A DNA stretch of 61,368 nucleotides, counting the filler, from Sluysia triapertura (taxonomy: Eukaryota), in assembly GCA_046118255.1 (NCBI GenBank). It is 5 parts of 5 records of this genome, joined end to end, with 100 filler letters (N's around TTAATTAATTAA, not from the genome) between each part and the next. Parts side by side here need not be neighbours in the genome. Positions count along the whole stretch, not along the records: positions 25,668 to 37,730 come from JBJNIA010142722.1; 4 more parts are not named here. One strand, given 5' to 3'. Position 1 is the stretch's first letter; each line of letters opens with the position of its first letter. Below the pieces are notes generated by a model. It made no database searches. It was not told the DNA's origin and was given only the letters and a program-made list of their open reading frames with translations. Below, one piece after another: positions 4,640 to 58,377 of the stretch. A program made the position numbers and the translations under genes.

Positions 4640-5480
4640 TAAGAAACTAACGTAAGTATTTCTAATGTTTCTATATATTATTAATTAAAAATATTTTCAA
4701 TAAAATTTGTTTTAATTATTAAAAATAAATATTATTTGGTCAAGGTTAACTAAACAAGTATATAAGCATTGCAAAAAATGCACAAAAGCCATAATCACAA
4801 TTTTAATACAATCAATTTTTTAAAGTATTTTTATTGGCGCAACTTATTTGGACAAAACTGTTGAGATACAATTGTCTTTTTACAATCACAAAAAGGATTT
4901 TTTGGCCAGAATCTTATCATTTATATAAAATAATTACGTTAGTTTGTTTCGTTAAGTTTAGTTACAGTAAGTATCAACGTAAAATCAAGGCAAATTATAT
5001 TTTTGTAATATTTTTTAGAAACTTATAATAGTTTCATTGTAAAATATATTTTAAAATATTGTTTAAGAATTAACTAAAAGTTAATTATCGTACTATACCT
5101 ATTGATATTTATATGTTTTTGTATCATGCTAAGTTATTCATTTGTAATTTCCGAATATATAAATTATTTGAGAATTTCTTGTTATTAACGATTAACTTCC
5201 ATAGTTTTAATTTTATAAATCATTACTATAGAATATAAATCTGAAACCGCAAAATCATTTGTTTTAAATCCTTTTCAGAGGATTATTGTAAACTATTGAA
5301 ACAAAATAAATTAAATACCTCCAGACCTTAATTTTAGCCAGCGAGCATTTTACAATTAAGCAAGCACTAAGGTATCTTTCTTAGTCTAATAAAATCTTTT
5401 CAATTGAAAGAAAAACCCAACGGCTAGCCCTAACTGGTAAGCCTAGTACGTTGGTGAACTCACGTATAAGCTTTACTTTA
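4640..5480 (-). other. Conserved structured non-coding element, copy A (homologous to 36388-37155 and 50130-50380)
   Basis: Shared blocks: AACGTA(T)CTAGnCTTACCnnTTAGGGCTAGCCGTT and AAGATTCTGG (with copy B), TCCAA..CCAA and ACCTTGA (all three). 17/18-bp inverted repeat at 4644-4661/4928-4945. Confidence 0.6.
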
Positions 5481-5879
5481 TTCTATAAGCCTTAAACAAA
5501 AAATTTTACAATATTAACAATATTATTAATAAATATTGATTAAAATATTGAATAACAACTATTTTTCTTAACTTTCCTAAAATATATACACACAATACAT
5601 TAACTACATTTTTGTAATACATAATACATTATTATAATTAGCATTACTAAAGCAAAACCGATATTAATCAATCAAAAAAATCAATGTTTACATCATTAAC
5701 CCAATATTTTTTGCGACCGTGAACGTGCTAATGCAATTAAAGACTATTATAACATCTAAAATTTTTATCTTTACTCTTTATTTATAAATCAATAATTGTG
5801 TAATTTTTATTAGATTTTGTGTAATAAAGTTTTTTGAATTTATTATTCATAATAAGTTTCGAGATTAAAGATGAAGCAT

Positions 5880-29790: not shown

Positions 29791-30795
29791 TTCTTAAATA
29801 ACTATCATTAATAATACATTAATGAAAAAATGTACCACCACATCCAACGAAAGAAGTAATCAATTGGAACTAACTTTAAAAGTGCGCGCTTCTAAATTTC
29901 TCCGAAATATGGTTAAAATATACATTGAGAAATAATTAATGTAGTAACATAAACTGTCACTTTTAAACAATTTAAATATTAAAATCCTATAAGGGAACCC
30001 ACCAGTAGTTCACAGGCGGACATAATAATTATATTCTGTTTTGCGTATATCTAAGGTAGGACCACAAATTTTTCTTTTACGAGTATAATCCTTATAAATA
30101 AAGATTAAAAATTTAAAATGACCAAATGCACAAGGATAACAAATACAATTATAGGGAAAAACAAAACTTTCCTATTTAATCTGATGTATAAATTATTTTT
30201 ATATTTATAAATTTTGATTAACATAATTAATCGCATATTTTATTTGAATTGTTTTGAATTCTTATTAGCATCTTTATTATAAAATCATTTCGAGTATGAA
30301 AAATAATTAACTTAATTTATAAATAAATAGAAAAAAACATTTAAAAACTCACTAGAAACTGAATTATCCACCATTATTAATAATTAATTTTCTTTAAACA
30401 AATTTCATTTAAAATTAATTTTGGTTTTCGCCAATTTGATCATCATTGTTACATCATTATTATTCACAAAATCTGTGTACAACACTGGCAAAAATAAAAA
30501 TAGTAACTTGTTTTGATTGGATATAATTATATCACACACAAATTCAGATGTAACTAATTTAAAGTTTTCTTTCTGTTATTGTGTGTATGCAAAATTAATA
30601 TCGTGATTAATTTTTTACACACAAAAAAGTATTGATTTCATAATTATTGATAAATAATACTAAAAAATAAATTATCTTACGACATAAGTTTGAGTATCGT
30701 GACAGAAATTAAATGAATAAAAAGTGTGTTCCATAGAACACATTTAATTTTATTAATTATTAAAAATTATATAGACATTAATTTAATCAATTTCA

Positions 30796-31589
30796 TGAAT
30801 TCTAATGCTACTTTTTTAAAAAATGTAAAAATGCTAAGTAATAGCAATAATAACAGTCACGATACCTTAAAAACAGTATGTTCAAATCCAACAAATTTGC
30901 TTTCTAAACCTCAAGAATCTTTCAAAAAACGAATAATGTTTTTATTAAATAATATGTCTGATCAAAATATATCAGAATTAACTGAAGGAATGATAAATTC
31001 TTTTGGTTACAGCAATGAAAGATGGATTGCTAAAGTACTGGTATTTCGTTGCAAAATTGAATCCAATTTAATACCACTTTATACTAAATTTATAGCTGAA
31101 TTTTCGAAACATTCAAACACCATTAATGATGTAGTAGTTGAATTATTAAAGAAAGAAATTGATGCTATTCTCTGTGGCAAAACTATTGATATCAAACTTA
31201 TGAAACATTTGAAAAATATGGGCAATTTTCTGGGCCGTTTAACGATTGCTAAAAATATTCACATTTGTATTGATTTGAAAGATCTGTTGCGCGATTCTTA
31301 TCAAGATTTTAACGACAGTGTTGAATTTTTGTTGCCATTTGTGTGCAATGTTTTGAAAAGCATACGATATAGTGAATCAATAACCCGCACTCACCCGTGG
31401 GCTCAAGAAATATTGTCAGTTTTGCGCGAATTATACGACTTATCGAACAAAATGGCAATTCAATTCGAAATTGAATTATTATTTAATAACTTAGAGTGTT
31501 CCATTAATGATATTAAGCCTGCATTTTATTTGAGACATGATCCCAAGCGAATGCATCCATATAACAATCGTTTTAAAAGAGGACAATAA
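30796..31589 (+). CDS. CNOT1: Stand-alone CNOT1 CAF1/DDX6-binding MIF4G-domain protein (intronless, 264 aa from ATG 30796; alternative ATG 30831)
   Basis: Colinear with the CNOT1 middle domain: PQESFKKRIMFLLNNMS (PPENIQEKIAFIFNNLS), WIAKVLVFRCKIESNLIPLY ([21 protein letters not shown]), LKNMGNFLGRLTIAKN (LKNLGHWLGMITLAKN), LLPFVCNVL (VVPFVAKVL), HPWAQEILSVLRELY (NPWTMAIMNVLAELH), QFEIELLFNNL..INDIKP (KFEIEVLCKNL..INELKP). Stop at 31587-31589, AATAAA at 31620. Confidence 0.9.
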
Positions 31590-32192: not shown

Positions 32193-33999
32193 GTTTTTGA
32201 ATATTCAATATTTTATTAAAATTTAACACTTTTGTCATTTTTTACTTATTAATATCTAATTTATAAATAATTTTTATAAATCATGAAATGAAATTATGAT
32301 AATTCATGCATTCTAAATTTGTTTTATTTCTATAAGAGAACTGCATTGGACTTCTTAATTTTGAGTATAATTTATAAAAAAATGAACAATGCTTTTTAAA
32401 TTTGTAATTTCTTAAACGATATTTAATAAGTTCGCAAATGCATGCATTTGGTCTATGTATGCTTAAACTGAACAAAAAGTACAAAGTAAAGTGTAAATAT
32501 TTTACTTGGATATATTGTATTTTTGACATTTCAAGTTTCTTTGTACTAATTTCTAGGCGGAGATCTTAATAAATAAATATTTGTAAATTTGTTGTTTGCA
32601 ATTTAATTTTCTGTTAAGTTTTGATTGGATCATTTAAAATCATAAAATTATTTACTAACTAAACAGTTTAATTTATAATTTAGAGTTGCGGTGGATGACG
32701 CCTTAATTCAATGCCGGAGATCAAACAATTTATTTATTCAGATTGTCCACTTTTGTAAGTGTCACTATGTCTTATTAATTCTGTGATTTAACTATTGAAT
32801 ATTTATTGATTAAAACTTTACATTATTTTTGTAATTTTTACAAAAATGTATCTCACATATTGCTTAAATATTAGTACGATTTGTTTTTTTCAGTATTTAA
32901 ATAAATTTACACGGAATCATAAGATGATTTCTTTTCTATACATATACTTAATTTTAAGTAACATTAATGTTTTTCTGTTTATTTCAGTCATAACGTGAAT
33001 GTGAAGTTGATCTCTGGTGCTGACCCAGTTCTTTATTTGTTAAATGAATCCAAAAAATATGTTGCAGTAAGTCTACAATATTTATTACACAAATTTAACG
33101 TAAAATTAAAAATTTAACTTCGACAAAAGTAAAAATAATTTCACTTTTCATATTTCTTTAATTGCATTTGAGTCAAGTAAATGGATTAGAAATTTTATCG
33201 CTTATCGAATTAAAATTAATCGATAAGGCAAGGTAACTTTACAAATGGATTAATTCATGTAGACTATTTTGTAATGTTATAGTCCAGAGGTGCCCATAAT
33301 TAATTAAGGTTTTGCGAGCCAAATTTTATTCGATTAATGGAGTCTGAATGTTTTTTCTTATACTTCACTAACGCAAAATGTTATGAACGAGGGTTCGCCT
33401 ATAATGACTAATAACTTTACAGTAGGTATCCCTATACGATTTTTCTTAGAAATTTCAATGACATACTAAAGGGTGAAGAAAATTTCAATTTGTCAAATGC
33501 ACAACTTTTATGATTATATCCTAATGTTCAGTTTTATTCCTATTTTACAGTTAGTGCTAATTTCCTTTTTATTTAGCTTTCTTAAGCGATTACTTGCAAA
33601 AAATGCAAATTTAGTTCCTTAATGTAAAGGCAATAGAGGTAATTTCTCTGTGAAAGTGACTAAATAAAGGCTTTGTAAATATATATGTAAAGTTATTAGT
33701 TAATATTACATTACAATATGTTAAATTAGGAAAGTTTATTAATTTATTAATGAATTTAATAAATTTATTTTTAATCCATCTTGAAAAATTTTATTAAATC
33801 TAAAAAAACTAAATTCTATAACATATATTATCAAAAATTTTGAGTTAAATATTAAATTGCATGTATTTTGATACGTGCTGAGTCTGTTCGGTTGTGGAGT
33901 CCTGAAATATAAATGATAGGATAAAAGTCATTATCATAAATAAAGATAATTACAATTACTTTAAGAGAAAGTTTACTAACTAAGAGTTAGTGTTTTCGT

Positions 34000-35830
34000 G
34001 CTGGAAACGAAGTGCTTGAACTTGTTACAACAATAACTTGAACGTAATGACGTTAATAGATTGTGTACTCTTTGTTTTGCGTTCGTCTACTTCTCGTTTA
34101 CTGCAGTTCATTTGGTAGATGTTTTGGAGTTAATAGTTTAAAAATTAAGTTTTTTAAGTTTTTAAAATTATGGTATGTTGAATTGAAGCACATTAAGTTA
34201 TAGGAATTTAAATCACCTTTACAAAAATTATAAATATATAAAATATTGTTACAAATTGTCTGATAAAATTAAAATAACGGTTTCTTCCGGAATATTATTA
34301 CGTACGTAATAAATTAAACAATAACAAAAAATTTTATTACTAAAATTATAATGCATAAATTTTATGACAAAATTTATTGAAATATTAAAGTTCCTGTATT
34401 TTCGTACGTTTCCAGTAATTTCAAGTGCAGATTCTTTCGGTATTGTTTTGATCGTCTTTATACTGTAACTGACCTTGGAGATTGTTGGAATCCAATTTGT
34501 TGTGGAGATAACTGCTTTGTAAAGAAACCAATAATTCATCTTCTTTGTTTGGCAGGTAGTATGGACAAGACCTGCCGAATTTTATGCAAGTGCCGGAAAA
34601 AATTAAAAAAGTTCCATTAATTTTGATTCACCAGAATCATCCCTTGTATTCACATCTAACACAAATTGATTCTTCTATGAGTACACATTTTTTTACTCGA
34701 ATTCATTTCTAATTCAGGATGATTTCTAAAACGCCTGATTACACTGTACGACATACAAAAACTTGTATACTCTTCTAATACATCTTGGAAATATTTAAAC
34801 ATTTTTGTTGTAGGTGAATAATAGTAAGATTTAAGCATTTCATACTTAAGGATTTAATACTTGATTTAGCAGATTTAAGTGTTTCTGTATCATTAGGGAG
34901 AATTGTATCATTTAAGTTTTTATTCATATTGCTTATGGGACTTGCTGATAGATGTAAGTTATTGAAAATTGTACTACTATTTCTATGAAAAATGTTTGAA
35001 ATCATCATTGCATAATAAATTAGGTTAATTCGATATATATTATTCCCTCGGTATTTGGATTCAGAAGTCATGAGTTACAATTTATTAGCAAAAATAGCAT
35101 TTCTTTCATCGGTTGGAAAATATATTACTTTATCTAACTTTGATACCAAAAGATACTGATGTCCATTATGAAATTCCAAAACATCTACGCTTCGGTTCTC
35201 AAATTAGCTACCTTTATAAATGGATTACCTTTATGATTTGATAAACGAAGTAGGATTTCATCATTGACAACGTTATGTTTACATTCAGCATAGTAATTGT
35301 AGCACTTCATATTTTTGAATAAATCCATCTGGTTATCTTGATCTTCGTGATGTGCTTGATAGTTAATAATTTTATTTAAAAATGAGTCATTTTCAATTTC
35401 AAACATAAAATTAGTTTTAATCGCGTTCATGTACGATTTGATTTTCATTGTTTTAATCATTTACATTCTTATAATTGTTATTACATGAATAAGTCTTATC
35501 ACTACTGTTACTTACTAATTTTGTCAAAGAATTTGAGTAATAATTTTCTTTACTAACTAACCCGATATCATCTTGAATGTATTCATGGGTAGATGAATGA
35601 TGTTCAGTAACAGGCACAATTAAAATTCTTGATGAAAATGGTGCATTACAAGAAGTAGTAGTATAAATATAAGCACCAACATAGTTTAGATCATTACGAA
35701 AATAAACTATGCTGTTATTGAAATGATTATGAATTCGTGATTTTGATTCTTTTGGAATATATAACATTATTAATGTTTATATCGCGTTGAAACTAATTTT
35801 TACAATAATGGAATTCTTCAAAATTTTGTA
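34000..35830 (-). pseudogene. Decayed intronless ORF of about 600 codons, Cys- and N-glycosylation-site-rich (env/viral glycoprotein-like)
   Basis: ORFs 35453-35767, 35185-35460, 34775-35071, 34656-34838 and 34249-34539 chain by frameshifts. Several NxS/T sites (NNS, NSS, NDS, NDT, NFS, NIS) and scattered Cys. No splice pattern seen. Confidence 0.5.
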
Positions 35831-36387
35831 TTATAAAAAATTTTAACTCGCTACAATTGTAATTTTAAATTATTAATCTCTTGTTTTTTATTGTCTAAAA
35901 TTTTAAACTTTTTTAACTTGTTGAGACTAAATTACTAAACGTGTGTAATTAACAATTTTTTGTTGTGTAATATACCATATAATATCCATGTAATAAAAAA
36001 GATAACCTATAATAATTAAACTAACGAAAAAATTTTTGTAATAAAATTTTTATAATTTATAAATAAAATAAAAAATTAAAATAACAGCAATCCAACCAAA
36101 ATTGTAAACAATCAAATCCAAATTAAAATCAAATAGAAACAAAGTTGTAAATGATCCAAAGAAGTTATACCAAAATTATAAATTGTAAAATTAACTTTGA
36201 AGTATTATGTTAATATTCATTAATTTTTAAAACCTAAAATTCATTTAATTTAAATTTGTTTAAAATAAAAATTATTCCAAAGTAAAATTAAAATCATCAT
36301 TATGATTATAAAGCTTTGATCAATTTAATAGAGTTAGTATAAATTTAATAATGCAAGAGTTTTTCTTAACTCAGTCTTATAAAAAAA

Positions 36388-37155
36388 TTTATAGCGAGTC
36401 CCACTAACGTATCTAGTCTTACCTTTTAGGGCTAGCCGTTTGATTTATTGAAAGAATAATTTATAACTACTGGGGATTTTCTTAGTGTATTTTCTTGATT
36501 TCTTACTCTCGTTTAATTGCTTAAGATTTTTGAGTTATATAATTACCGAAATTCTTATAAACGATTTTAATTTGTAGTTTTATCCGGTTCAGAATTAAAT
36601 AGAACCGTATCAATCTTAACAAAATTCAAAGTCACAAATCACAGTTTAAACGTATTGAATAAAATTAGTGGTTAAATACAATAATAATAAAATAATAGAT
36701 ATAAAATGATATAAAAGTTATAGGATTTTCTATAAATGAAAATCTGTCGCAATAAGATTTTAGGAAGGATTTTGCTCTGCTATCGTTTTATTGGATAGAG
36801 AAAATATGTAATCATTTATGTATAGTTTACTTGACAAAATAAATGTTTGCCGAAAAAACTTTCTAAAAATTAAAATTTTCAGTATTATTATGCAAAAATA
36901 TTCTTCTATTGATCAAAAGATTCTGGATTCTTCAAAAGTAAAGTCGTGGTTGTAAAGTTTGTGTCCAATATCCGAAACCAAATTAAATAATCTTTTTTCA
37001 AAAGTACTAAAATTATTTTGTAGTTGAAAACAAAATTTAAAATCAAAATTATGTGAGATTAAAGTTTTTTAGGTTATGTATTTATACTGTGAGTTTCGAC
37101 CTTGAAGGTCGAAATTCAAACAAAATAAAAGAAAATAAAAATGTTTTTCGCATTT
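36388..37155 (+). other. Conserved structured non-coding element, copy B
   Basis: Hairpins at 36406-36440, 36469-36486 and 37091-37117 (TTTCGACCTT-G-AAGGTCGAAA). Long-range stem 36890-36902/37140-37153. TATAAA (36338) and TCAGT (36371) lie just upstream. Confidence 0.6.
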
Positions 37156-37730
37156 CAAAAAAAAGTAATAATTATTAAATAATAATTTAGATTATTAAAT
37201 AATTAAAACTTTTAAATAATGATAATTCTTTAAAAATTAAATAATTCCTTTAAATAATAAGAGAAAATTTAAATTAATTCTTAAAATTGATTAACGAAAT
37301 AGATTTATAAAATTAATCAATAAAATAGATTTATTCATAATCAATATTTTTACTATTTTCGGTGTGTGAGTTTTATTAACATTTAACAATATATCAATAA
37401 AGTTTGTAATCTATTATTTACAACATAAAAATATTTACAATAACAGTTAGTTTTAAATTAAAATAAAATAAGTAATCATTTTAAAATGAGATTCTATAAA
37501 GACAATATAACATTAAATTTTAAGAACTTAAAGATTATTCTAATATGAGAGTTAAAATTTTAATAAATTGAATAAAACAAATTTACAATTAAAAATTAAT
37601 AACATTATTCCTGATCAAAATTAACTTAAATTAAAGATTGAAAGAATAATGTTATGAATTTGTTTATAAATTATAAATGTTTAAATTTGATGTATCGAAT
37701 TTAAAAGCATTATAATCGAGAAAAAGCATA

Positions 37731-40930: not shown

Positions 40931-43456
40931 CTATAGATCAAGGTTGGCCAAACTGTGGCTCGCGAGCCACATGCGGCTCTTTGAAGGATTATTTGTGGCG
41001 CTCGATAAATGTACCCGAGATCCATTTTCATTTTTCTGTTATTATATTTTAAAAAATTATTGTCGTTCGGTATGTGTTTCAAAATGTATTTAAAATTACT
41101 GACAACAAATGTAAAGACTAAATGCAACGTTGTAGCAAATTTCATTGCTGTCCAAGTTAAGAATGATATGACTCATCGAAAACTGCACGAACGAACTTAA
41201 ACATTGGCCCGACATAAAAGTCAGTAATCGATCGACTTCAGACCGATTTTGAATTGCAACGGACATTTGATATTGTGCTCTGGACTCCGTATTTAATTGC
41301 GGCTCGTGAAAAATTTCAAATTTTGAAAAATGAATCGCATTATCAAGGAGTTTGGCCACCCCTGCTATAGATCACTTTTAAAGCGGTTTGATGTAATGTA
41401 GAATTTTTGTGACTTGGCTTTGATAATATACTAGCAGAATTATTTTTTTACATCCCGCTACAATTCTGATTCTGTTATACAGGTTTTTGTCGCGATACGT
41501 CTCATTTGTGCTATTTATTAACCTTAATTGACATTATCACATATTAATTCCTCATATTTTGGGTATTTCAACTTATTTCTAATATGGTGCTAAGAATATT
41601 CGAAATAAACTGCGTGACATGTTCAAATAATAAATATTCACTTTTGATTCTGATATTTATATCCAATTTTGTAATACAGTAAAATAATTAACTCAAACAT
41701 AAATGATATTAGTACGATAGTACTGTTGCACTTCAATAAATGTAGTGACCGGGCCCTCTTACCTTACAGTTGTTCGGTTCGATGTTCTGACCACTAAGCT
41801 GATAGTAAATTGTACTCTCATTAATCTAAATGGCATATCTCAGCCAATTCAATAGTGCTTGACCTCAACATGAGGGTATTTGATATGTGGCTCATCATAA
41901 ATGACCGGGATTCGAACCCAGGCCCTCATATCTCACATCTGAGTATTTCGATGCTCTGACCACTAAGCTATCAGCGCCATCTATCAAATTTATATTATTA
42001 TGTCAATTATACTATCGTTAATCTAAAAGGCACTTTAGGCCATACCCTAACAGTACTATTATTACTAGTAGTATTACTCTAATAATGCATATTACGCGTT
42101 GATTTACGCAGACTATATTGGTGATTTATTTAGCAAGTGATGCTATGTTTAAGACTATTTTGTTATTATTCTATTTATCAGACAGATTTATCTTCAGGTA
42201 TGATGTCATACTTTTGCTTTAAGTTATTGATCTAAGTATTGTTTACTTACGTTTATTAAAAATATAATGATAATAATAATTTTGTGTGGTGCCCAAGTAC
42301 CGTTTTTGTATGAAATATGAATGCAAATTTTGTGGTAATACATTATCTAATTTTTGAGTTTTTATTTAACTAATGTCTTAGATGAATTTGATGTTAATAA
42401 TTCTTCGTTATATTTGAAATCTTACTTTAAATTATATTTGTTTTATATACTCAAAACTACTGGTTTAAACAAAATATTTGAAATTTAAAATATTAACGGA
42501 TTTACAAATAATTTTTGGGTTTATAAAAAGATTTTTTGTTAAATTTTAAGTGGCGTGCCTCAAGCATTAATTTATTTTATTTTATTTATTTATTAATTTA
42601 TTTAAAATTTATACATCTTTGTTTATTAAGTTTTGGAAATATTAGATCTTGTTTTAATTGATTTAATTTAATATATTAATCAGTCAAGTCATTGTTAGGA
42701 TGCGCCTTATTTTACACAAAGTTTATTTTTTAGGATGCTCCTTATAGGCCGAAAATGCGGTAAATATTAAAATTTAAAAAATATTATTAGCCTAAAACGC
42801 CCATCAAAAGGTGGTCGTTTGGGAAAATGTGGCAGAATGAAAAAACGTAAGTGAGAAATGGTAGATATTTGGTGAAACTTTCTACGATGAATCGTAAAGC
42901 TATGACTTTGCAGAAGCAGTTAGAGACTTGCGGAATTCACGTTAGTGTCAGAACAGTCAACCCAGAAGAAAGCCTAAGTAGACAACACCAGTATTAATCA
43001 GTGAAAGGTTGGCATAGGTGGAGCAACACCAACATTTAACTGAGCAAGACTGGAGTCAAGTGTGTTTTAGTGTCGAGTCGTCTTTTCAAGTATTGGATGA
43101 CAAGACCACCTTTGTAAGAAGGAGATAATTATTATTTGAGAACGAGACGACCCTAAGAAGAAAGCCTAAGTTTACACCAAGCATTTAACTGAGGATGACT
43201 GGAGTCAAGTGTGTTTTAATGACGAGTCCTTTCAAGTATTGGATGACAAGACGGAGATGAGAAGGAGACCTAATGAGGAGTTTCAAATATTATTTTTTAT
43301 TCATTCATTTATCTATAATCATTTATTATTTATTATTTATATTTGGAATTCAGTCAACAGAAAGGTAAAAGAACGTATTTTATTGCTGGATATCTGGCTT
43401 ATATTATCGGTTTGGCGACAACTATTATTGTAATGCATATTTTTAAGCATGCACAG
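39344..43456 (+). CDS. HM13: Signal peptide peptidase (HM13/SPP, presenilin-type aspartyl protease), exons 1-8; final PALL exon(s) not found on this contig
   Basis: Exons 39344-39523, 39558-39659, 39698-39780, 39813-39943, 39990-40078, 40115-40298, 40748-40868 and 43354-43456, all GT-AG and in frame. Motifs HWIANN, LFIYDIFWVFGTNVMVTVAKSFDAPIKL, MLGLGDIVIPGIFVALLLRFD and MHIFKHAQ. Confidence 0.96.
40939..41364 (+). mobile_element. Non-autonomous hAT element (Charlie/SPIN-like) in SPP intron 7
   Basis: TIRs CAAGGTTGGCCAAACT / AGTTTGGCCACCCCTG, a perfect 8-bp TSD CTATAGAT (40931-40938 and 41365-41372), and subterminal GGCTCGCGAGCC palindrome. Confidence 0.93.
41745..42035 (-). mobile_element. 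Tandem tRNA-derived SINE units
   Basis: A box TAGCTTAGTGGTCAGAGC and B box GGTTCGAATCC (41908-41918). Second head GCTTAGTGGTCAGAACATCGA at about 41780-41800. Block GCC(A/T)TTTAGATTAA repeated at about 42030 and 41834. Confidence 0.75.
42790..43285 (+). mobile_element. Tc1-like transposase remnant with internal duplication
   Basis: PRRKP..HLTEQDWSQVCFSVESSFQV and HLTEDDWSQVCFNDESFQVLDD..RRRPNE match the Tc1 WxxVxFSDESxF motif twice. Confidence 0.8.
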
Positions 43457-43533: not shown

Positions 43534-45018
43534 TGTACAGTAACTCTTATTATATATGTTCAAAATGGTTTACAGACTATTGTGTATCAAAAATTAAGTG
43601 TGATAAATCACATTAAATAAATAATGATAGGTAATAAATTCTTTTAAGTCATTTATTTAATAATTTTATAACTACAAGTAGATATTGATTATCCCAGTAT
43701 ATTTTCTCCTAATACCAGTTTTCTAGTTTCACTGATTGGTGGATATTATTTGAGTTCAGTCTGTTGATTTGCCGACACTTTCTTATATAATACATTTGTA
43801 ATTGTTTTGTGAAATATTGATTACTTTTAGTTTTTCTATAATCTTTGCAAGTTCAAACATTAAGTAGGATTACGAAAAATATCTTAAAAAGATCTAAATA
43901 ACCCATAACAAGTCTATAGGCAGAACCGAACCTAAAATCCACAGTGAATTTTTACGCAATTAAGGGCTCGTCCACAGAATTTTGTTAACAAATTTTTACT
44001 TATTTACTTAACAATTATAAATTTTAAACGGGTCTGTTTGTAGTCTACGGTTTATAACGTAAAGTGGACGTATTTACAGAACTGACTGCGAATAAGTGTT
44101 CCCTAGTCTTGTCAAATAAATATTATGAATCTTTTGTTTTATAAATTTATGTTCTTAATCGTTTCTTGAAATCTTTTTATTAGGTTAACTCTAAACATAT
44201 TTTTAAACTAATAAGTCAATTAAAATAATGCAAAAATTTATTAATTACAAAAAAATCGTTGATTAATAAATATAATAACAAGGATATCCAAATTATAATA
44301 CTTGGATTGTTAAAAGTTGATACAGATTTTAAGTAGAAATTTAACGCTAAAAATATCAGAGCATTGAAACTTAACAATTATTATCTTGCTTTAACGATAT
44401 TATAAATTATGATGATTTTTTGTCTGGAACGTTCCCGATTCTAATGTATTTTCCCAAATCGCGAAGTGATGTCAGTTCGAACAGAAAACTGCTGCCAAGA
44501 TTAATAATGAAAATCTTTTCTTGTCGATCAAATAAATTTTAAATCTTCGGGACCACTAATTGTGTATCCTTCGTGAAATATCCTTTAATTAACTTAGCGC
44601 GCAAAATTTTTGAAACAAAATATTTGAGTCTTGTGTTTTTTGTCATCTTTATATATTTTTCTATTTCAACATTATATTCCAGCAATTACAAATATCATAA
44701 ATTATTAAGGAATCCAGTGAATGCAGATATAAATTATTAAATAAAAATTTTTGATGTGAAATTAATTTGTTTTTTATACTAGTAATAAAATATATAATAA
44801 AATTCAGAGAATTATTGTATATCATTTGTACTGATAAAAATAGAAATATTTAATTAAATATTTATACATTTATACTGATTAAAATTATATTCAACTTGTT
44901 ACATTATTTTTAAAAATAAAAAAATATATCTATTTTTATTAAATACATTATATACATTTAAAAATACATTATACTTAAAAATTTAATACATTATTAAAAA
45001 TTCAATACATTATTTACA
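43534..45018 (-). mobile_element. Putative 3' LTR (about 1.5 kb) of a large LTR retroelement in SPP intron 8
   Basis: On the minus strand a purine tract GATAGGGAAG precedes TGTAAAT (45018). The candidate end ...ACTGTACA (43534) gives TGTA...TACA termini. Contains a degenerate HSE (44422-44440) and the family motif GACCCGTTTAAAAT (44021-44034). Confidence 0.55.
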
Positions 45019-45099
45019 ATACTTCCCTATCAGGGAAGATTCGTCCTGAATCACAGAATAAAATTAATAATCAGTAAAAGAATCAATATTAGTCAACGT

Positions 45100-46395
45100 T
45101 GCTATCAACAAAGCCAGTTCGATAAAGATGGCTGGATGATGAATGATAGCAGTTTTTCTGGTCTAATTGCGAATTCCGTTTGGCGGAAGAGATACTAACG
45201 GGAATATGATTCGGATTTGGAGGTGAACTGCCCAACCATTTGTCTACTTGATCAAAAATATTTTAATATGATGGCTATGTTGCTGAAATTGAATGCTCTT
45301 GATGCGATTGGTTTGTTTTGGTAGAATATATTATACCACTTGATGATGAGTTATTAACCAATGATGTGCCAGGTGTCACAAGAACATCAGAGAATAGTGA
45401 AGGAGGAGGAAGCGAACAGTTAGGAATGAAAGACGTGTCCTTTACTCTAATAAAATCGAGAAGGGAAATCAATTCAAAAGCCATACATGAACATGTCATT
45501 TTAAGGATATAGATGACGTGTGAAAAGTAGAGAAGGCGAAATGTTTGACGACCTCGCGATATTGGGTCCGTAGTGGAATAAGACAAAAGATTATGATTTG
45601 TCAAATTAATAACGCCTTTAAGCCAACCAAAGGATAGTCGATGAGGCAAGGATTCAAAGATACCAAGATTTTATCATTAAGGTGCCCCAAGAAGAATGGC
45701 CTCACGTCATCTATATCCTTATCCTCAAGGTTGTCAGTGTCCTTAATATCCTGGATATCGCGGACAAAGTTCTTGATACGCAAGCGTGGCTTAATATTAG
45801 TATCAGAATGTTATTTCTTGCAATAAGGGACGCAACTGAACTGCGTAATATGTAGTCGGTTTAGGAAATCGAAAGCGCAGGAGTAAGCAATAAAAACTAA
45901 ACGTTAAGGGTGGAACATGCGTGAAAGGAACACCGCTGTTCCAACGTTCCATATTAACTGCTCCAGAAACGACTGGTAATCTGTGATAAGTAGTGGGAAT
46001 AATAAGGCAAAAGAAGTGGGGAATTCTGCACCTTCGATGACAGTATCACTATTCCTATGAAGATTGGATACGTAGAGTGAAGAGAAACTATGTACCCTCG
46101 TCAAATAAGGAGTTCCCTTGTCAAGGAGGGTAAGTTTAATGACACCACGAGCCACAACTACATAGAAAAACTTGATATAATCTAGAATATTCGTTGGACC
46201 ATTTAATGAAATGTGAGATTTTTCAGGTGTGAAGGCGAAAATACGTGTGGCGAGGTTAAGATCCAACTCAGATTTCAAGTTGTTAGGGGGTAGATACAAA
46301 ATTAGGAAAGAAGGCAGGTGTGATGTTCTCGTGTCAAAACTTGTCGACGTACACGTAGAAATTCTTTTGTTGGTTGAGGATCTTCGCTTCCATTA
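45100..46395 (-). pseudogene. Decayed accessory ORF (about 430 codons, unknown family) just upstream of the PPT
   Basis: Higher GC than flanks. ORFs 45904-46299, 45601-45783 and 45275-45649 chain through stops and frameshifts. Ser/Pro-rich tail. Confidence 0.55.
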
Positions 46396-46544
46396 TACTA
46401 AAGTAGTAGGTGAATCATAAAACAAAATTGTACAAAGCAAAACAAAAACCGAATAAAACAAAAAAATAAGTATATAATTTTCTAATTACAAAACTTGTTT
46501 ATACATTTGTATTATACGATTTTAAGAAAAATTTATCGTATTTT

Positions 46545-46946
46545 CTTTAAGAATGGGTTAGTCGGCTTAGTAGTACCATTTTTGCTAACGTTTTGTATTT
46601 TGTAAAAATGTTTGAGTTGGCCTCTACGTCTATTTCTTTTTTGAGATCTTGTCAAGTTCGGAATTATGATTGGAGGCGGCCTAACCAAACCATTCTTAAT
46701 AAGATTCTTTTTATCTGTAATAGGTTGATAAATATCAATACCTGGCTACTCAGGTATTATGCATTTGATTGTAAAAGTGTAAGATCTTCGAAATGTTTAT
46801 AATAAATATTGCACTCAACAATAGTAGTCCTACATAGAAGGTAAAGGTGACAAAGAGGTTGTAGACACAAGAAAAATGGAAGCGATGGAATCAAGGTGTC
46901 GTCCTGGAAAAATATTTTCTAATTGACCTGAGGCAAATAGCACATG
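46545..46946 (-). pseudogene. Decayed small membrane-protein ORF
   Basis: Hydrophobic LFVTFTFYVGLLLLSAIFIINI, followed after a frameshift by RPPPIIIPNLTRSQKRNRRRG. Confidence 0.4.
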
Positions 46947-47426
46947 TTGAGTTTTTTTTACTAAAACAATAAAATATAAGATAATAAGTAATTAAGTGAT
47001 GCTAGTAATTTAAATCAAAAACTTAAAAAAATAAAAATAAGTAGATAATTTATGTTAGTTTATGACTCGAAATGGATGGTAAACCATCATAAACAGTCAG
47101 TTACACAATCCTTATTATCACGCATGGCCAAATCTGAATGTTAGAGCCATCACATATGGTCAGATGTGAAATATGTTAACAATTTATATTTTAATGAAAA
47201 AATGAGCCTTATGCCTAATAAACAGATAGAATTTTGGGATGATGAAATTTATCGTTATTGTCATTAATAAAGCTATTATTAAAATACAGTTACCAATTGT
47301 AATGAAATTACTGTTGGATTTTATTAACGATGGATACCTATTATTGATAATCAGGTGATGCACAATACAACGAAATATATATGTAACGTCATAACGTCAC
47401 ATGTGTTCACTGAATTGGTATGATTC

Positions 47427-49360
47427 TTAAGTAATTGTCGACTTTACTTGTGTTATTTGCCATTCTCCATAAATAAACGGCGCTTTATTATTTGTAGCGT
47501 ATTCGTAAATTGGATGTGGGAATATTGGCATACCCGGTGGAATCGCATAATCACATTCGATGTGGAATTGTATATGGGCAATCGTCATTATTATTATTCT
47601 GTGGCAGACAAGGATATCGACATCTATTTTGCACAAACATAATAATCGTTAACACTACTATAGCAAGAGCGATTACGAACAATATTGCTGATACTATTAA
47701 TATTACCAACGCCGAATCGCTCCGCAATATCTCCAGTATTGTTAAATATTGTCTTTCTTTTAATTCAAAATGCAAATATTTCGATGAATGACGAATTTTC
47801 ACAACATACCGTGACAGGATATTTCAAGTCATCACAAATATAATTTTCATATATAATCCAGGAACTAAAATTAAATCTAGCAAGTTTCAGACATGAATAT
47901 TATTTGGCATGAATATTATTGTCTAATATTTTAACATTTACTTCGTTATCCATATTATGAAATTCAAAGCATTCTGTCCTAAAAGAATGTTCACGGCGTT
48001 GAACTACTGTAATTATTGTAATTAAAATTAATGGTATAAAATTTTTATTACTCGTAAGGATTTTTATTTTTCTGTCTATTTGAAACAAATAAATTTAATG
48101 TTCCTAATTTTTACTGTTTCCATTTTGTTATATGATGTAAAACTGATTGTGCAATTGGTTACTTTTGTATTATGAAAAGTTTTCATCGTTTTAAAAGTCC
48201 GTAAGCCTAATGTTATAATTAAATTAGTTTTATTAATTATTGTTAAATTAAAATTTAAGGTCAAAATTCTTCAGTTCTAAATTTGGGGTTGTCAATTGTT
48301 TCATATATATAATTGTGGTTAAATGACACTTGAAAAATTGTTTAACGTCATTAAAATGAATTACTTTATAAAAATTGATAATAATTATCTTGAAAATGAC
48401 TCCTTTATGATTTAAAATTTTATATGAAATACGTTTAATTTGATTACAAATATTCATTTCTATTAAAAAGAAGTCGGAGACAACAAATACGAATTTATTT
48501 TTCTTTATGTTATATAATAATATGACACAAAGATTAAAATTTGTTAAAACATTTAGGACATTGAATGGAACGTTTGCATTTCGGAAGTAGGTAACTTTCT
48601 TCGGCTGTGGAATTCTAAAATAAAAAGGATATTTTATTTGTCGAATATAAAAGATAAAATTTACTTTAAGTTCGAAATCGCCAATAAAGCTATAAAATTG
48701 AATATCTTCTATTAAGGTAGCATAGTTCTTATTACATGTCAAATTGTCTAAATCTTTAGCATCTTGAATAGCCATTATTAGATTGTTTACACGTTCTATA
48801 TGATCAAAATTATCATTGGCTTTAATATCAATATAGCGAATTTCATTGATGGTATGGAACAAATTACACGATGCTCTGTATTTACTGCAATGACCTAATT
48901 TGTTCGATTGAAATGGACATTAAGCAGTTCGAGATAATTTATTTTTGCATTGGCTTGAAGAAACATCAATTAAAGGTGTGATTATTGAAGGAGCATGATT
49001 GTTTACGAATAATCTGCTGTAATTTTACTATGAAGTACATAGACATTGTATGAATCAGGATCCGATAGAATTATGCTAACTGTCTTACATGTATCATTTG
49101 TGAAATCATATTTATACACATGACCTTCGTTAAGGTAACTAGGAACACTTGGTGGATAAGGTATAACATAAAATTTAACCACTAAGTCGGAAGCCAATTC
49201 TAAATTATTAATTTCTTTTAAAATTATATGTAACTCAACCACAGGATTACGATACATCTTGAGCATTTTTATATTACTATTCATTTCTTTTGTAAAATGG
49301 GTTAAAGATTGTACAAATCAAAGAACATTTGAAGAAGAAAACGCGTTATTCTTCATTAAA
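47427..49360 (-). pseudogene. Decayed type I membrane glycoprotein ORF (env-like, about 600 codons)
   Basis: ORFs 49003-49284, 48248-48862, 48076-48264, 47900-48088, 47551-47802 and 47427-47636 chain together. Cys-containing ectodomain with NxT sites, TM SALVILIVSAILFVIALAIVVLTIIMFV, and a tail with YTIP, YAIP and IYEY. Confidence 0.6.
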
Positions 49361-50015
49361 TTTTTGACGTATGTTTGATGTTCTTCAATTTGCATAATAT
49401 ACTGATTGAAATTGATTATTTTATTTAGAGATATTAATCCACTATTTACAACTATTTTTAGTGATTCTGATGAACAAATAAAACTTTCTGACTCTTGAAT
49501 TCCTATCAGAATGCAATGTGATGATAAGCCCGATTCTATTTTGTTATTTTGTTGTTAGGATTCATTTAGTTGCTCCGTTTCCTTTACTTTAATTTCATCG
49601 TCATTAAAATTATTATTTGTATGACAAAATGATTTATTCAAAGCAGCATTTCCGTAAAGTTTTGCTTAACTTCAATCGTTAATTTTGATCGAATGATTTC
49701 GTTCATTATAATCTATGGTAGGTAATTAAGCCAAAGTAGTCGATTCTCATAAATGATAATTAATTGAATAGGATTTGTTGGTAATTATAATTTTTTAATT
49801 TTTACTGAACCACATTATGATATCTATGTTGATTGGACGAGCAATCACTGTAAGTAAAATTACAATGCAGAGATAGACTTGATTGGACGCCCAATTAACT
49901 GCTGCATTAACGTCGACGAAGTTGTAAGCATGTATGCTTGTCACCATGCTGCTAAAAAGAATTGACGTAGAGAAATGTTGACAAGCAAAATGATACCATA
50001 CGCTTGGAAACGGTC

Positions 50016-50115: not shown

Positions 50116-50129
50116 TCCTAAAATAAATT

Positions 50130-50380
50130 AGACTAACGTGACTGTGTAAAAATTTTTATAGGATAAATTATAAATTTGACAAATTTCTTCTTCCAAATTG
50201 TGTACCAAAGATTTATAAAAAAAATTTATATTATCAAAGTATGATTAATTGTGAGAGCTTTATTAAAAAATCACTTTATTATATATTGTTTTAGCCTGAC
50301 CTTGAGAGGTCAAGTTAAAACAAATTGAAAAGTTTAAAAAATAATTTAAAAATTAAATAATTTCTCTACAGTCACGTTAT
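50130..50380 (+). other. Conserved structured non-coding element, copy C (3' domain only; cut by contig start)
   Basis: Perfect 12-bp stem TAACGTGACTGT (50134-50145)/ACAGTCACGTTA (50368-50379) enclosing TCCAAAT..CCAA and hairpin 50286-50323 (GACCT-TGAG-AGGTC core). Confidence 0.6.
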
Positions 50381-51039
50381 AAAATTCAACATAATATTTA
50401 AAATTAAACTATTTAAATTAAAATTATAAATAATATTTAAATTATAAAATTTAGTATCATACTTTTTATAAGAATCCTATTTTTTCTTTTTTTACAAAAA
50501 ACCAATAAAAGTTTTAAATAAAAGTTTTAATCAAAATCCAATCAAATATCAATAAATACATAAATTATACACAAATGTATTAAAGTTCAAACTGATTATT
50601 TTTATACAAATATATTTAAAAGTACACAAATGTGTTAAAGTTCAAATTGATGTATGTTCTTTCTCCACAAATCTCGTAATAATAATAATAATAATCAATA
50701 AAATCACAAATCAGTCACATTATTTTCTAATTATTTACTTAATATTAATCCCAATTTTACGCCACGCGTTTCACAAACTCTATGTTGCAAACTCTCAACA
50801 CCATAACACACATTTCTAGAGCATGTCACTTGTTTTGGTTTTTATTTTTTCTTTTTTCATTTCTATTCGATTAAAAATTATGAAAAATAGAAATTGCTTA
50901 TTCTACTATTAATTTCTCATGAACTCGAACATATATATTAATAATAATAATAATAAATAATATTTCGATATATGTGGAAATAACTTATTCAAATATTTTC
51001 ATATTGACAAGAACTCTACTGTAACACAAAAGGATTACC

Positions 51040-51670
51040 CAAGAATATCGAGTCATCATCAACACGTAATATTAAGTTTATTAATTTTCTATAATTATAA
51101 TTACATTTTATTATAAAATATTGTTAATGTTCACATTTTTCCATAGTCTTCTCGATCACTAAGTGAAATTCTATTGGTAAGTTTCTATAGTTGGGTTAAT
51201 GAAGTGATTATTAAATAACACAAATACTATTGATAACAATTAATAAAATTGAAATTAAATAAAAATATAATAATCAATTAAATGAGTTTAAAACGTCCAC
51301 TTAAATATTTTGTTTGTGAAAAACAAGTGAATAATTTTAAAATTTAAATATGTTTAATAAATTAAATTAGCATAAAATATAATCAGGAACTTAAAATAAA
51401 ACAAAAAGGAAGCTGAATCTAAAACTTTAAACAATATAAAAATAATCATATTATGAGAATCTTATTTTGGACGATATATTAAAACATTAGTTTGAAAATT
51501 ACATTAAGATCACAAATTAGGAGCCTTTTTAAGTGTTATTCTAAATATTTAAAAATAAATTCATTACTTTTCATTTTATATAAGTACTTCTGACTTTGCA
51601 TTCCAACAAGACAGTTGACACAATTTATTTATCGTATTCTCAGTAGCAAATTAAAAATTTATTAATATTC
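51040..51670 (+). repeat. Dispersed repeat; diverged copies at 55225-56100 and (partial) 51915-52060
   Basis: AATATCGAGTCATCAT..., ATAGTCTTCTCGATCACTAAGTGA, AAAACAAAAAGGAAGCT and GTATTCTCAGTA.AAATTAAAAATTTA occur in the same order in both long copies. Confidence 0.85.
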
Positions 51671-55150: not shown

Positions 55151-55402
55151 GAATTTTGACATATCAGAGAAAGACAATATAATGGTTATTTTTATTTTTA
55201 AATGTTTCATAAAAAAATTTAGGGCACCCCAATAATATCGAGTCATCATAAACATGTAATGTTACTTATTAATTTTCTATAATTAGAATTATATTTTATT
55301 AATAAACATTATTAATGTCCACATTTTCAATAGTCTTCTCGATCACTAAGTGAGGTTGCTTTGGTAAATTTCTTTATATTACTACTGTTGGATTATAGTT
55401 AA

Positions 55403-55588
55403 CACGTTTGCAACCAGCGTTGTATCAGCGTCGCACATATGTGGCGTGTCTACATTATCAGTTTTCGATAAGGTGTTGTACTAGTTTTTTGCAGTTAAAA
55501 AATTCAATGCGATTTAAAGTCATTTCATTTGAAAAATTTCCATAGGCTGTGATATGATATTTTCTTCTCAAGCTCTGGTTGCGAACGT
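55403..55588. mobile_element. piggyBac-like MITE nested in the 55.2-56.1 kb repeat
   Basis: TTAA-CACGTTTGCAACCAG ... CTGGTTGCGAACGT inverted repeats. Absent from the sister copy at about 51200. Confidence 0.65.
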
Positions 55589-58377
55589 CATGATTAAATA
55601 ACACAAGTACTACGATAATAATTAATAAAATTGAAAATAAATGGAAATATAAGAACTAATTAAACAAATTTTAAATATCCACTTAAATATTTTGTCAACT
55701 ATTTTGTAAAAAACAAATAATGGAAAATTTTAAAATATGTGTTTAATAAATTATTGACACAGCAATTAGCATACAGTAAAATCAAAAACTAAAAATAAAA
55801 CAAAAAGGAAGCTTAATAATAATACAAAAATAATCATATTATGAAAATCTTATTTTTGATATAATTTCTAATTATAGAAGCCATATTAAAACATTTATAT
55901 GAAAATCATATTAATGTCACTAATTAAGGGTCTATTTTAATATTTATTTAGAAAATAAATTCTAAATTCACTCGGAAAGTATTTAAAAATAATTTCATTG
56001 CTTTTTTTACACAAATACTTCTGTCTTTTGTGTTTCAACAAGAAAGTTGACAAAATACATTTATTGTATTCTCAGTAATAAATTAAAAATTTACTATTAT
56101 TCTATACTACAAAATGAATATCATTCGCCTATGTCAAACGATTTATACCTTTACTGGAGACGTACCTATAGGATTTTATTACTTGAAGTATATTAATTCG
56201 AATTTGTTTTTCGAGCTATGCGCATTAAGTATATCTTCTTACTTACATTCAATTACTTAAGTAATTTATTTTCTCATTAAAATCTTTTAGAGTTTTATTA
56301 ACTTAATCTCTTTTGGTTGTCATTCTTTTATCAATGCTAAAACGCTTTAATTATCTATAACTTGCTGCTAACTTTATCAATAAGAAAGCTAAAAAGTCTT
56401 CCTAATATTTATTAAGACGATGTAATAGTTCAAATGTAATGGAACAATAAAATAACTAATTAAATAAAAATGGCTTGATATATTAAATCCAGTACTTAAT
56501 ATTTAATTAAATAATTTAGAAATTGATTTCGTCCGTAATTAATATTTTAGAATTAAAATATTAATGTATTTTTTAATGGAAAAATGAATGAATTCATTTA
56601 CTTAATGGACCACAAAAGTATTTCAATAAACTTTTTAATTTATCTAATGGATTTTCTATTTATTTAATGGATGTTAAAATGAAAAATAATTAATTTTTTA
56701 ATGAAAATAATTTATAATGGATTTAATATATTGCAAATGGATTTTTAAATGGAGTATAAAGACAAAAACATAAAATATAAATTCAATAGATGGTAACGAG
56801 TTTTGTTAATCGCGTGTAATATTTTACAACTGGATAAAGCTTCGACTTGGTTATTTGATATCCAATCATTTGAGAAATTAATTTGGTTCGATTATTTGGA
56901 AGATTAATTTAAAAAATTTTATTTGGTATTTCAATTGGCTGAACCAGATAAATGCATATTTTATCCATGATTTTGTTAAAATACGTAAGTTTTTGTTACA
57001 TAAGTTCTCTTTACTTAAATGAGGCACAAACTAGACTTAAAATCTAAATAACTTTTGCGCTGGCTTAACCATTTATAAAATCACTACAAAATACTAATGA
57101 AAAAACCCATACTATTTTTTGTATATTGTTTTATTTTTAATAGTTCCTGAATTATGATTCCATTATCTTAACTGTTGTACGTTATGTTGAATAAAAATTT
57201 CATATTAACAAATTATTTGTTTTGAACTATCTTGAAAAATTTATGGTTAATTATATACTTTTGTGTGTTTACATGAGTTCTTTGTTGGAGATTTAGATTT
57301 AATGTTAAAATCATGACTTCCTAATTTTTAAAATAGAATTATAGAAGAAAAGTAACTTCACTATGAATTTAGACAAACGATATAATCATAGAATTTCTTT
57401 TATAATTCAACATTATTAATGATTTCTCAACAAACAATGTCACATCACAAGAAATACAGAAAAACTTATCTGGGACCAGATAGCTTAATTTTGTATATTG
57501 ACCATTTCATTCTATAAAAATCTTTGATTAAATTTTTAAATTAAAAGACTTTTGAGAAATCACTGATTAAGGAGAAAAATATCTGAAAATGAATTAAGAA
57601 ATTAAATTGTTAATATAACTTTATGGAATGATTTTAAAATCTCCAAATTAAGTGATAGAGCGTCCAAAATAACACATTGTTATTTTAGTTGTATACGAAT
57701 TTAATGAAGTTATAATTTCAGTTTGTGCAAATTGAACTGAATTTGGCACACTAGCGCTAAGCATTACTAACTGAAGCTAATGTGAAACAAATCATCCATC
57801 GTCCCCAAATAAAATCGTGGGCTTCTCATTAAAATAGTGTATTCCATCCTTAGTAGCTACTTCTAAATTATTCAGTATTAAGCAATTATTCCGACGTTTT
57901 CGTTAATCAAAAAGAGATCTAGTGCTTCTTATCTAATTTTATGGAGTTTTGGACTACAATATATGAAATTTTCGTATAACATAAGCATTTTGTATAGCTA
58001 ACAACTTCAGATTGACTTTGTGGTACACCATCTTGATAAGCTGTGAAATATTTGTTACTTTGGTAAAGTGTCACCAATAAATCGTCAAACATATCTTCGA
58101 ATTTTGAAATAACTTCAGTAATGGCTAGAGATCACCAACATATTTATTTCGACGAGGAATAGATTGTTTTGTTTTTAGCATTACTGTTGAAGCAATTGCA
58201 CAATATTTTCACAATACCTTGCATGGTAGAGAGTTAGGACAAAGTTAGAGTGAGAAAAATAGTTATGGTAAGATAATTAAGAGATGTTGAGGGTTTTTTT
58301 TATAGAAATTTCATTTTTGATTAAATTCTAAATTCTTAATTATTAAAATTTAATATATTAGGTTATTTATGTGGTTG

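Follow-up and report, generated by a model that had tools for sequence, protein, structure and literature searches.

A multi-copy, partly structured non-coding repeat element in Sluysia triapertura, possibly an RNA module of a retroelement-like family

What is the non-coding element of about 0.8 kb that occurs in three diverged copies (A, B and C) in the DNA of Sluysia triapertura analysed here, and is it built to act as RNA? The window, by which we mean the whole analysed stretch of 61,368 nt, consists of five contigs joined via spacers, with a G+C content of ~25%; it carries intron-split animal genes (kinesin, fibronectin III, signal peptide peptidase) and, elsewhere, decayed pieces of retroelements. 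A preliminary description had proposed an undescribed large structured RNA of a mobile-element family. The arms and motifs claimed for A, B and C were all located where they had been quoted, and the three copies lie on three separate contigs (Table 1). Our analysis supports a non-coding, multi-copy, undescribed and partly structured repeat element, without a match in Rfam. The claim of a large well-ordered RNA was borne out in part, and least in copy B: order is found locally, in H1, in the closing stem of A and C and in the 3' hairpin of B and C, but not in the whole.

Table 1. Positions, along the window, of the three copies, their parts and the features next to copy B
Feature	Position	Strand	Remark
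Copy A, entire	4641..5526	-	upstream block, 5' motif, H1, H2 and closing stem; without adjoining element ORF
Copy A, 5' motif	5463	-	
Copy A, H1	5454-5417	-	
Copy A, H2	5385-5366	-	
Copy A, closing stem	4948-4928 with 4661-4641	-	
Copy B, entire	about 36338-37153	+	
Upstream block of B	36338..36393	+	weakly common to A; 8/1000 controls align equally
5' motif of B	36392..36399	+	pairing with 3' arm possible
H1 hairpin of B	36404..36442	+	two internal loops; conserved family core
H2 of B	36469..36486	+	short hairpin; two A-U pairs of A are G-U in B
First half of middle of B	36493..36640	+	weak colinear similarity to A; 9/1000 controls equal
Closing stem of B, 5' arm	36890..36902	+	starts with a motif resembling the element's 5' end
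TCCAA-N9-CCAA of B	36964..36981	+	
13-bp hairpin around ACCTTGA in B	37090..37118	+	counterpart in C; not formed in A
3' arm of B	37140..37153	+	partner 36890-36902 or, more weakly, the 5' end
Copy C	50116..50379	+	3' domain only, truncated by contig start
Copy C, closing stem	50134-50146 with 50367-50379	+	
Copy C, hairpin	50286-50323	+	
Broken ORF beside B	34252..35776	-	several frames; divergent from B; multi-copy in run X1
Second copy of B's 5' 8-mer	35846..35853	-	back to back with the first; about 75 nt upstream of broken ORF

The relationship between A and B is clearest at their 5' ends. The 5' block is homologous (blastn E 1.2e-5; nhmmer E 1e-4 to 2e-4), and, judged by sequence comparison, it is beyond doubt that the first 100 nt are common to both copies. 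When the A/B alignment score of each segment was set against those of 1000 composition-matched pieces of the window, an equal score was reached by 8 controls for the 60 nt upstream of the 5' motif, by one for the H1 segment (B itself not being excluded from that control set), by 44 for the H1-H2 segment and by 9 for the 150 nt after H2. The second half of the middle (about 250 nt) showed no A/B similarity (361/1000 controls equal), nor did the sequence downstream of the element (529/1000) or that beyond the 60-nt upstream block (500/1000 and 943/1000). These scores thus place the start of the unit about 60 nt 5' of the 5' motif and let it fade in the middle, the first half of which folds differently in A and B, no helix common to the two being found there. 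Comparisons of the flanks gave low-complexity matches only.

Further downstream, the 3' domain keeps the same order and lies at a similar distance from H1 in A and B, and it holds a 10-mer unique to these two copies. Copy C is joined to the family by an ordered composite motif, TCCAA..CCAA..ACCTTGA, which was selected post hoc; its three occurrences in the window are those in A, B and C, against two occurrences in 300 simulated windows. The preliminary description had given the first part as TCCAA-N7-8-CCAA; the motif is indeed present in all three copies, but its spacer measures 10 nt in A, 9 in B and 8 in C, so that the pattern as worded matches C alone. Over the whole 3' domain sequence similarity is weak (pairwise z = 1.6, 3.1 and 1.7), and the stem arms were not aligned by MAFFT. 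A sliding scan over 2444 windows with A and B as query placed C sixth among the non-self places, and the other two scans left B and A outside the top 8. A covariance model of H1 made from the two copies found nothing beyond them in the window (best other E 0.39), and none of nine further inverted-repeat units of the window resembles all three 3' domains.

The abundance of the element is seen in contigs of a sequencing run, X1, possibly the window's own source, which were placed on 33800-37730 at 80% likeness; for the variant places, 40 of 408 are listed, and summed depth does not equal copy number. H1 is covered by 64 contigs at 36405 and by 92 at 36441; among the listed places there are 9-28 in the body of B and 4-24 on the ORF beside it, and the mean depth is higher again at 37100-37231. 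The contigs turn loose on both sides of the hairpin, 49 of them before 36402 and 43 and 44 behind 36446-36447, and those loose before 36402 enter A-rich sequence, T-rich on the other strand. The occurrence of H1 in 64-92 contigs with unlike flanks therefore marks a dispersed repeat family in which H1 is the fixed core. At 36405 and 36441, where a pair is broken in B, most of the X1 depth reads as in A, and B thus looks decayed. The neighbourhood of B, including the broken ORF, is multi-copy in X1. The joints from 36345 to 37537/37586 end in a high-copy repeat, and one of their sides is just 23 letters long. Just 3' of B, 37364-37730 is a distinct, very high-copy repeat, with more than 100 X1 contigs at several places. 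A single sequencing run was listed with the element and none of RNA; pattern scans gave 0 matches in viral contigs and 0 in metagenomes, and shorter 5' patterns gave 21 and 37 matches, with the hairpin in 0 of these 58. The literature searched held no description of the element, though repeat libraries and supplements, which lie outside that scope, could already list it.

Within the conserved 5' H1 block of ~54 nt, H1 folds with z of -2.5 (A) and -2.4 (B) on the strand claimed in the preliminary description and of -1.3 and +0.2 on the opposite strand; 28 of the 30 cells in the A/B pair table are paired, and a G-U is kept. At the same time, 0 of its 15 pairs changed on both sides. H1 is, then, a real conserved hairpin on the claimed strand, but one without compensatory changes. 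In the short hairpin H2, two A-U pairs of A are G-U in B, but at position 36474 all 14 X1 contigs differ from B, breaking one pair in that register. Copy B had been said to start after TATAAA...TCAGT, and both sequences are present in B (36338 and 36371), but neither is kept in A; what A and B have in common is the TATA-like CTTATA.AA, about 24 nt from the 5' motif in A and 16 nt in B. The 5' motif of A reads GTGAGT, which resembles a splice donor and makes it a putative one, and CTTAC, the complement of the 5' motif, lies inside H1 in both A and B.

The 3' domain was said to be closed by a long-range stem of different sequence in each copy. Compared with 900 controls anchored on the two motifs, a closing duplex of equal strength was found in 0.3% for A and 0.2% for C, and 3 of the 13 pairs changed on both sides between these copies; the stem of B, in contrast, is at background, since 53% of the controls were equally strong. 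The stem of A and C reads TA-ACGT...ACGT-TA, and B is without TA-ACGT ends. The hairpin around ACCTTGA, supposedly always enclosed by the stem, is strong in B (z = -5.0) and C (-6.8) but absent in A (-0.5), which retains its base; between B and C it shows double changes at 3 of 12 pairs and a kept G-U, assuming one indel and with the register set by hand. ACA stands at the hairpin base in all three copies, a UGAG loop is found in C only, and the unit runs 30-65 nt further. Besides the internal arm, the element's 5' end is a possible partner for the 3' arm. This second pairing amounts to 8 bp in A, where this is the best of all downstream places, and to 5 bp plus 2 in B, where it ranks fifth; the best partner of A's 5' end in the region of C is C's 3' arm. 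Between A and B, the six pairs of this duplex include one double change, two single changes and one break.

Do these parts add up to one folded RNA? The full-length fold of B has a z of -0.5 on both strands, no better than shuffles, and that of A a z of -2.2 in sense and -3.4 in antisense (22 shuffles each throughout). A consistent strand for the G-U pairs had been taken to point to RNA rather than DNA. In favour of the claimed strand are a G-U to A-C ratio of 10:2 in the homologous helices, a count which leaves out the hairpin row of A (2 G-U, 1 A-C) and concerns helices chosen on that strand, and the z of H1; on the other side stand a ratio of 10:8 in a strand-neutral survey and the 3' domain, whose z in each of the three copies favours the opposite strand. 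The notion of a conserved, covarying structure likewise keeps its double changes in the A/C stem and the B/C hairpin but finds none in H1; with two to three sequences compared, these covariation figures are counts, not a statistic. Perfect inverted repeats of 12-19 bp, 100-400 nt apart, number six in the window, against a simulated mean of 1.4 and maximum of 6 in 40 runs.

As had been claimed, the element is undescribed as far as Rfam 15 goes: no family lies over it, the best E being 4.6 for B and 8.4 for A. The whole-window search, the sole one covering C, gave one tRNA-like match at 41902. This match (41902-41973), where ARAGORN calls none, lies in 41716-42060, two tRNA-like pieces inside a 13-bp inverted repeat that look SINE- or MITE-like. 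IRES, ribozymes, 7SK, RNase P/MRP, snRNA and introns gave no Rfam 15 match at gathering score, and resemblances to the dicistrovirus IGR IRES, 7SK, the P3 domain of RNase MRP and the U1 5' end, and to pistol and HDV ribozymes, Y RNA and mitochondrial rRNA, fall below Rfam score. A hammerhead retrozyme or Penelope pLTR is rejected by 0 matches to the CUGANGA core on both strands of A, B and C, and a polymerase III RNA (7SK, SINE) by runs of at least five T, of which A has 5 and B has 4, together with the missing Rfam match. The element resembles animal telomerase RNA in the TTAGGG of H1 and in the UGAG loop plus ACA at the base of C's 3' hairpin; unlike it, the element has many copies and the loop of B is not a CAB box. 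We reject it, given that the folded strand offers no template, CCCTAAC (A) or CCCTAA (B) being present only on the other strand and inside a stem. Neither PMC8480181 nor PMC2770079 found a telomerase RNA in flatworms.

The reading we favour, with a probability of about 0.4, is that the dispersed non-coding family represents a folded RNA leader or terminal module of a retroelement-like mobile family, with B as a decayed copy. Transcription would start just 3' of the TATA-like block, and the splice donor would be the 5' motif, which the RNA itself could mask, as the recurrence of its complement inside H1 and in the 3' arm suggests. The 3' arm might pair now with the internal arm, closing the 3' domain, and now with the 5' end. 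A protein of the element or of the host may bind H1 and the 3' hairpin and handle the unspliced RNA for export or packaging. The sequence between the structured parts drifts freely. A sharp core with unlike flanks fits a cis-element kept across diverged subfamilies; the multi-copy neighbourhood of B together with the decayed retroelement pieces of the window, and the double changes in the A/C stem, the B/C hairpin and the A/B 5'-end pairing, argue for the leader, and the 10:2 ratio and the z of H1 favour the claimed strand. Against it count the absence of covariation in H1, the stem and fold of B at background, the conflicting strand evidence, a 5'-end pairing of only 5-8 bp that ranks fifth in B, and the fairly common inverted repeats of the window.

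The analogy behind this reading comes from the HIV-1 leader, in which, according to PMC4974535, a hairpin masks the major splice donor. Retroviral and LTR-element leaders are, like the element, non-coding, several hundred nt long and equipped with a GUGAGU-type donor with masking complements nearby (PMC4974535), and they share with it hairpins with a palindromic 4-mer and long-range pairing; the likeness drawn here to the HIV-1 leader concerns features. Unlike in these leaders, no primer-binding site, LTR pair or downstream gag was found for the element, and its nearest ORF points away. No primer-binding site, gag or pol was found beside any of the three copies; inspection revealed no target-site duplication or LTR pair, in contigs that are short, and no TGG-type primer site at either end. 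Where LTR termini would read TG...CA, the element's ends form an imperfect inverted repeat of 5-8 bp.

The LARD-type non-autonomous retrotransposons of cereals are multi-copy, lack coding capacity and have a conserved internal secondary structure, and they resemble the element in all three respects; but the element is much shorter, comes from an animal, and showed no LTRs, primer-binding site or polypurine tract. As for a source lineage, the giant, env-bearing Burro elements of planarians (PMC6431247) are a candidate only if the host is a triclad flatworm. The preprint bioRxiv 10.1101/551184 has no bearing on the element. An IRES, offered earlier as one function, is unlikely on the claimed strand, where no frame of at least 68 codons follows A or B within at least 570 nt; at C only a low-complexity frame of 87 codons lies downstream. 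On the opposite strand only B has an ORF beyond it, broken and about 600 nt on.

Could the same features belong to DNA rather than RNA? A non-autonomous DNA element, Helentron/DINE-1-like or composite with a MITE-like inner unit, is the most serious competitor, though we think it improbable. H1 would then be the terminal hairpin of single-strand DNA, and a transposase would read the closing stems as inverted repeats. The high copy number with a conserved end block would suit such an element, as would the TA-ACGT...ACGT-TA of the closing stem in A and C and the further short inverted-repeat elements in the window; and the T-rich strand of the sequence entered by the contigs that turn loose before 36402 is what Helentrons prefer, to go by PMC4067079. 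That paper also defines DINE-1/HINE elements by subTIRs of at least 11 bp at both ends, and describes them, like the element, as of high copy, non-coding, with a terminal hairpin, an internal inverted repeat and a T-rich side. Unlike them, the element lacks an 11-15-bp subTIR pair, its internal repeat is far from its partner and its hairpin is long and interrupted; membership of DINE-1/HINE is rejected on the subterminal repeats, which reach 5-8 bp only. More generally, a DNA element sits badly with ends joined by no subterminal inverted repeat of 11-15 bp, with an internal repeat 220-280 nt from its partner instead of 3-22, with A/B similarity extending about 60 nt beyond the supposed end, with the internal loops and kept G-U of H1 and with a B that is without TA-ACGT ends.

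Somewhat less probable still are stand-alone genes for a multi-copy structured ncRNA of about 760-820 nt, made by RNA polymerase II, with its 5' and 3' ends paired, and spread by retroposition. The TATA-like block directly upstream of A and B speaks for such genes, the unit ends can pair with one double change, A is solitary and without an element ORF, and there is no downstream reading frame. Body length and sequence, however, drift strongly, half of the middle being unalignable; the fold of B is no better than shuffles, the spacing from TATA to motif differs between A and B, the T runs listed above count against polymerase III, and known large ncRNAs do not match. A bolder variant, which we hold to be quite unlikely, is a new class of large structured RNA: an RNA of ~0.8 kb with its own polymerase II promoter and many copies, its splice-donor-like 5' end masked by switching of the 3' arm. 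Such an RNA would spread as a non-coding parasite or be an ncRNA in the service of the element that encodes it, and a partner mRNA would start back to back with it from the same 8-nt motif. That only the 54-nt H1 block is real, with the 3' domain and C as look-alikes from AT-rich, inverted-repeat-rich DNA, is quite unlikely: the modest ranks in the sliding scans, the pairwise z values of the 3' domains and the background stem of B would agree with it, but the composite motif, the order and distance kept in A and B, their exclusive 10-mer, the stems of A and C (p about 0.003 and 0.002) and the pair-preserving changes between copies do not.

What depends on the answer differs with the reading. 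Few large structured RNAs have been catalogued from the mobile elements of invertebrates, and a short core fixed across dozens of diverged flanks would offer a ready deep alignment for a new RNA fold. It would also point to the cis-signal that a mobile lineage cannot lose; a stand-alone RNA, if true, would be a new ncRNA class, and the end of a DNA transposon, if true, an ordinary unannotated repeat.

Lastly, we turn to the surroundings of the copies. The ORF beside B does diverge from the element, but its earlier label as env-like is not sustained: it has no Pfam family, no homologue among 343 candidates of 183-583 residues and no hydrophobic segment, its best 19-residue mean being 0.9 compared with 3.5 for the membrane anchor at 47554-47823 in contig 4. 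Copy A has no neighbouring ORF of this type. B's 5' 8-mer occurs in the window only at 36392 (+) and 35853 (-), and A is without such a partner. Long-range stems of 17 and 13 bp lie downstream of the broken ORF (33405-33702 and 32712-33019) and are unlike the element's 3' domain. Frames that look env-like by inspection, without Pfam support, are present in contigs 4 and 5.

In contig 4, whose ORFs match nothing in viral contigs, PDB or Atlas, a decayed gene row at 45000-50015 (-) consists of a long frame with a membrane anchor and a Cys-rich tail, a short basic one and a third with one relative (P0005, E 6e-5), for which arenavirus nucleoprotein and RNase T-type exonucleases come up in Atlas as weak leads only (0.75-0.76); by its sequence, the row looks like a virus-like element. 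Within its coding frame, a perfect 19-bp inverted repeat (45502-45520 and 45703-45721, 182 nt apart) forms the window's strongest long-range stem, and one of its arms overlaps copy A's starting 7-mer. The integrase remnant of contig 5 is enclosed by a pair of repeats, and copy C lies about 650 nt outside this pair. The direct repeats at 51038-51670 and 55228-56102, 71-85% identical, flank integrase and env-looking remnants and are possibly the LTRs of a deleted gypsy element; the second of them contains, at 55404-55588, an insert of 185 nt whose inverted ends measure 14 bp. An intronless sugar-transporter frame (1473-2564, +; 364 codons, PF00083) converges on copy A, and 30717-31589 (+) is an intronless stand-alone gene for a CNOT1 CAF1-binding domain (E 1.7e-42), for which only two relatives of similar length were found.
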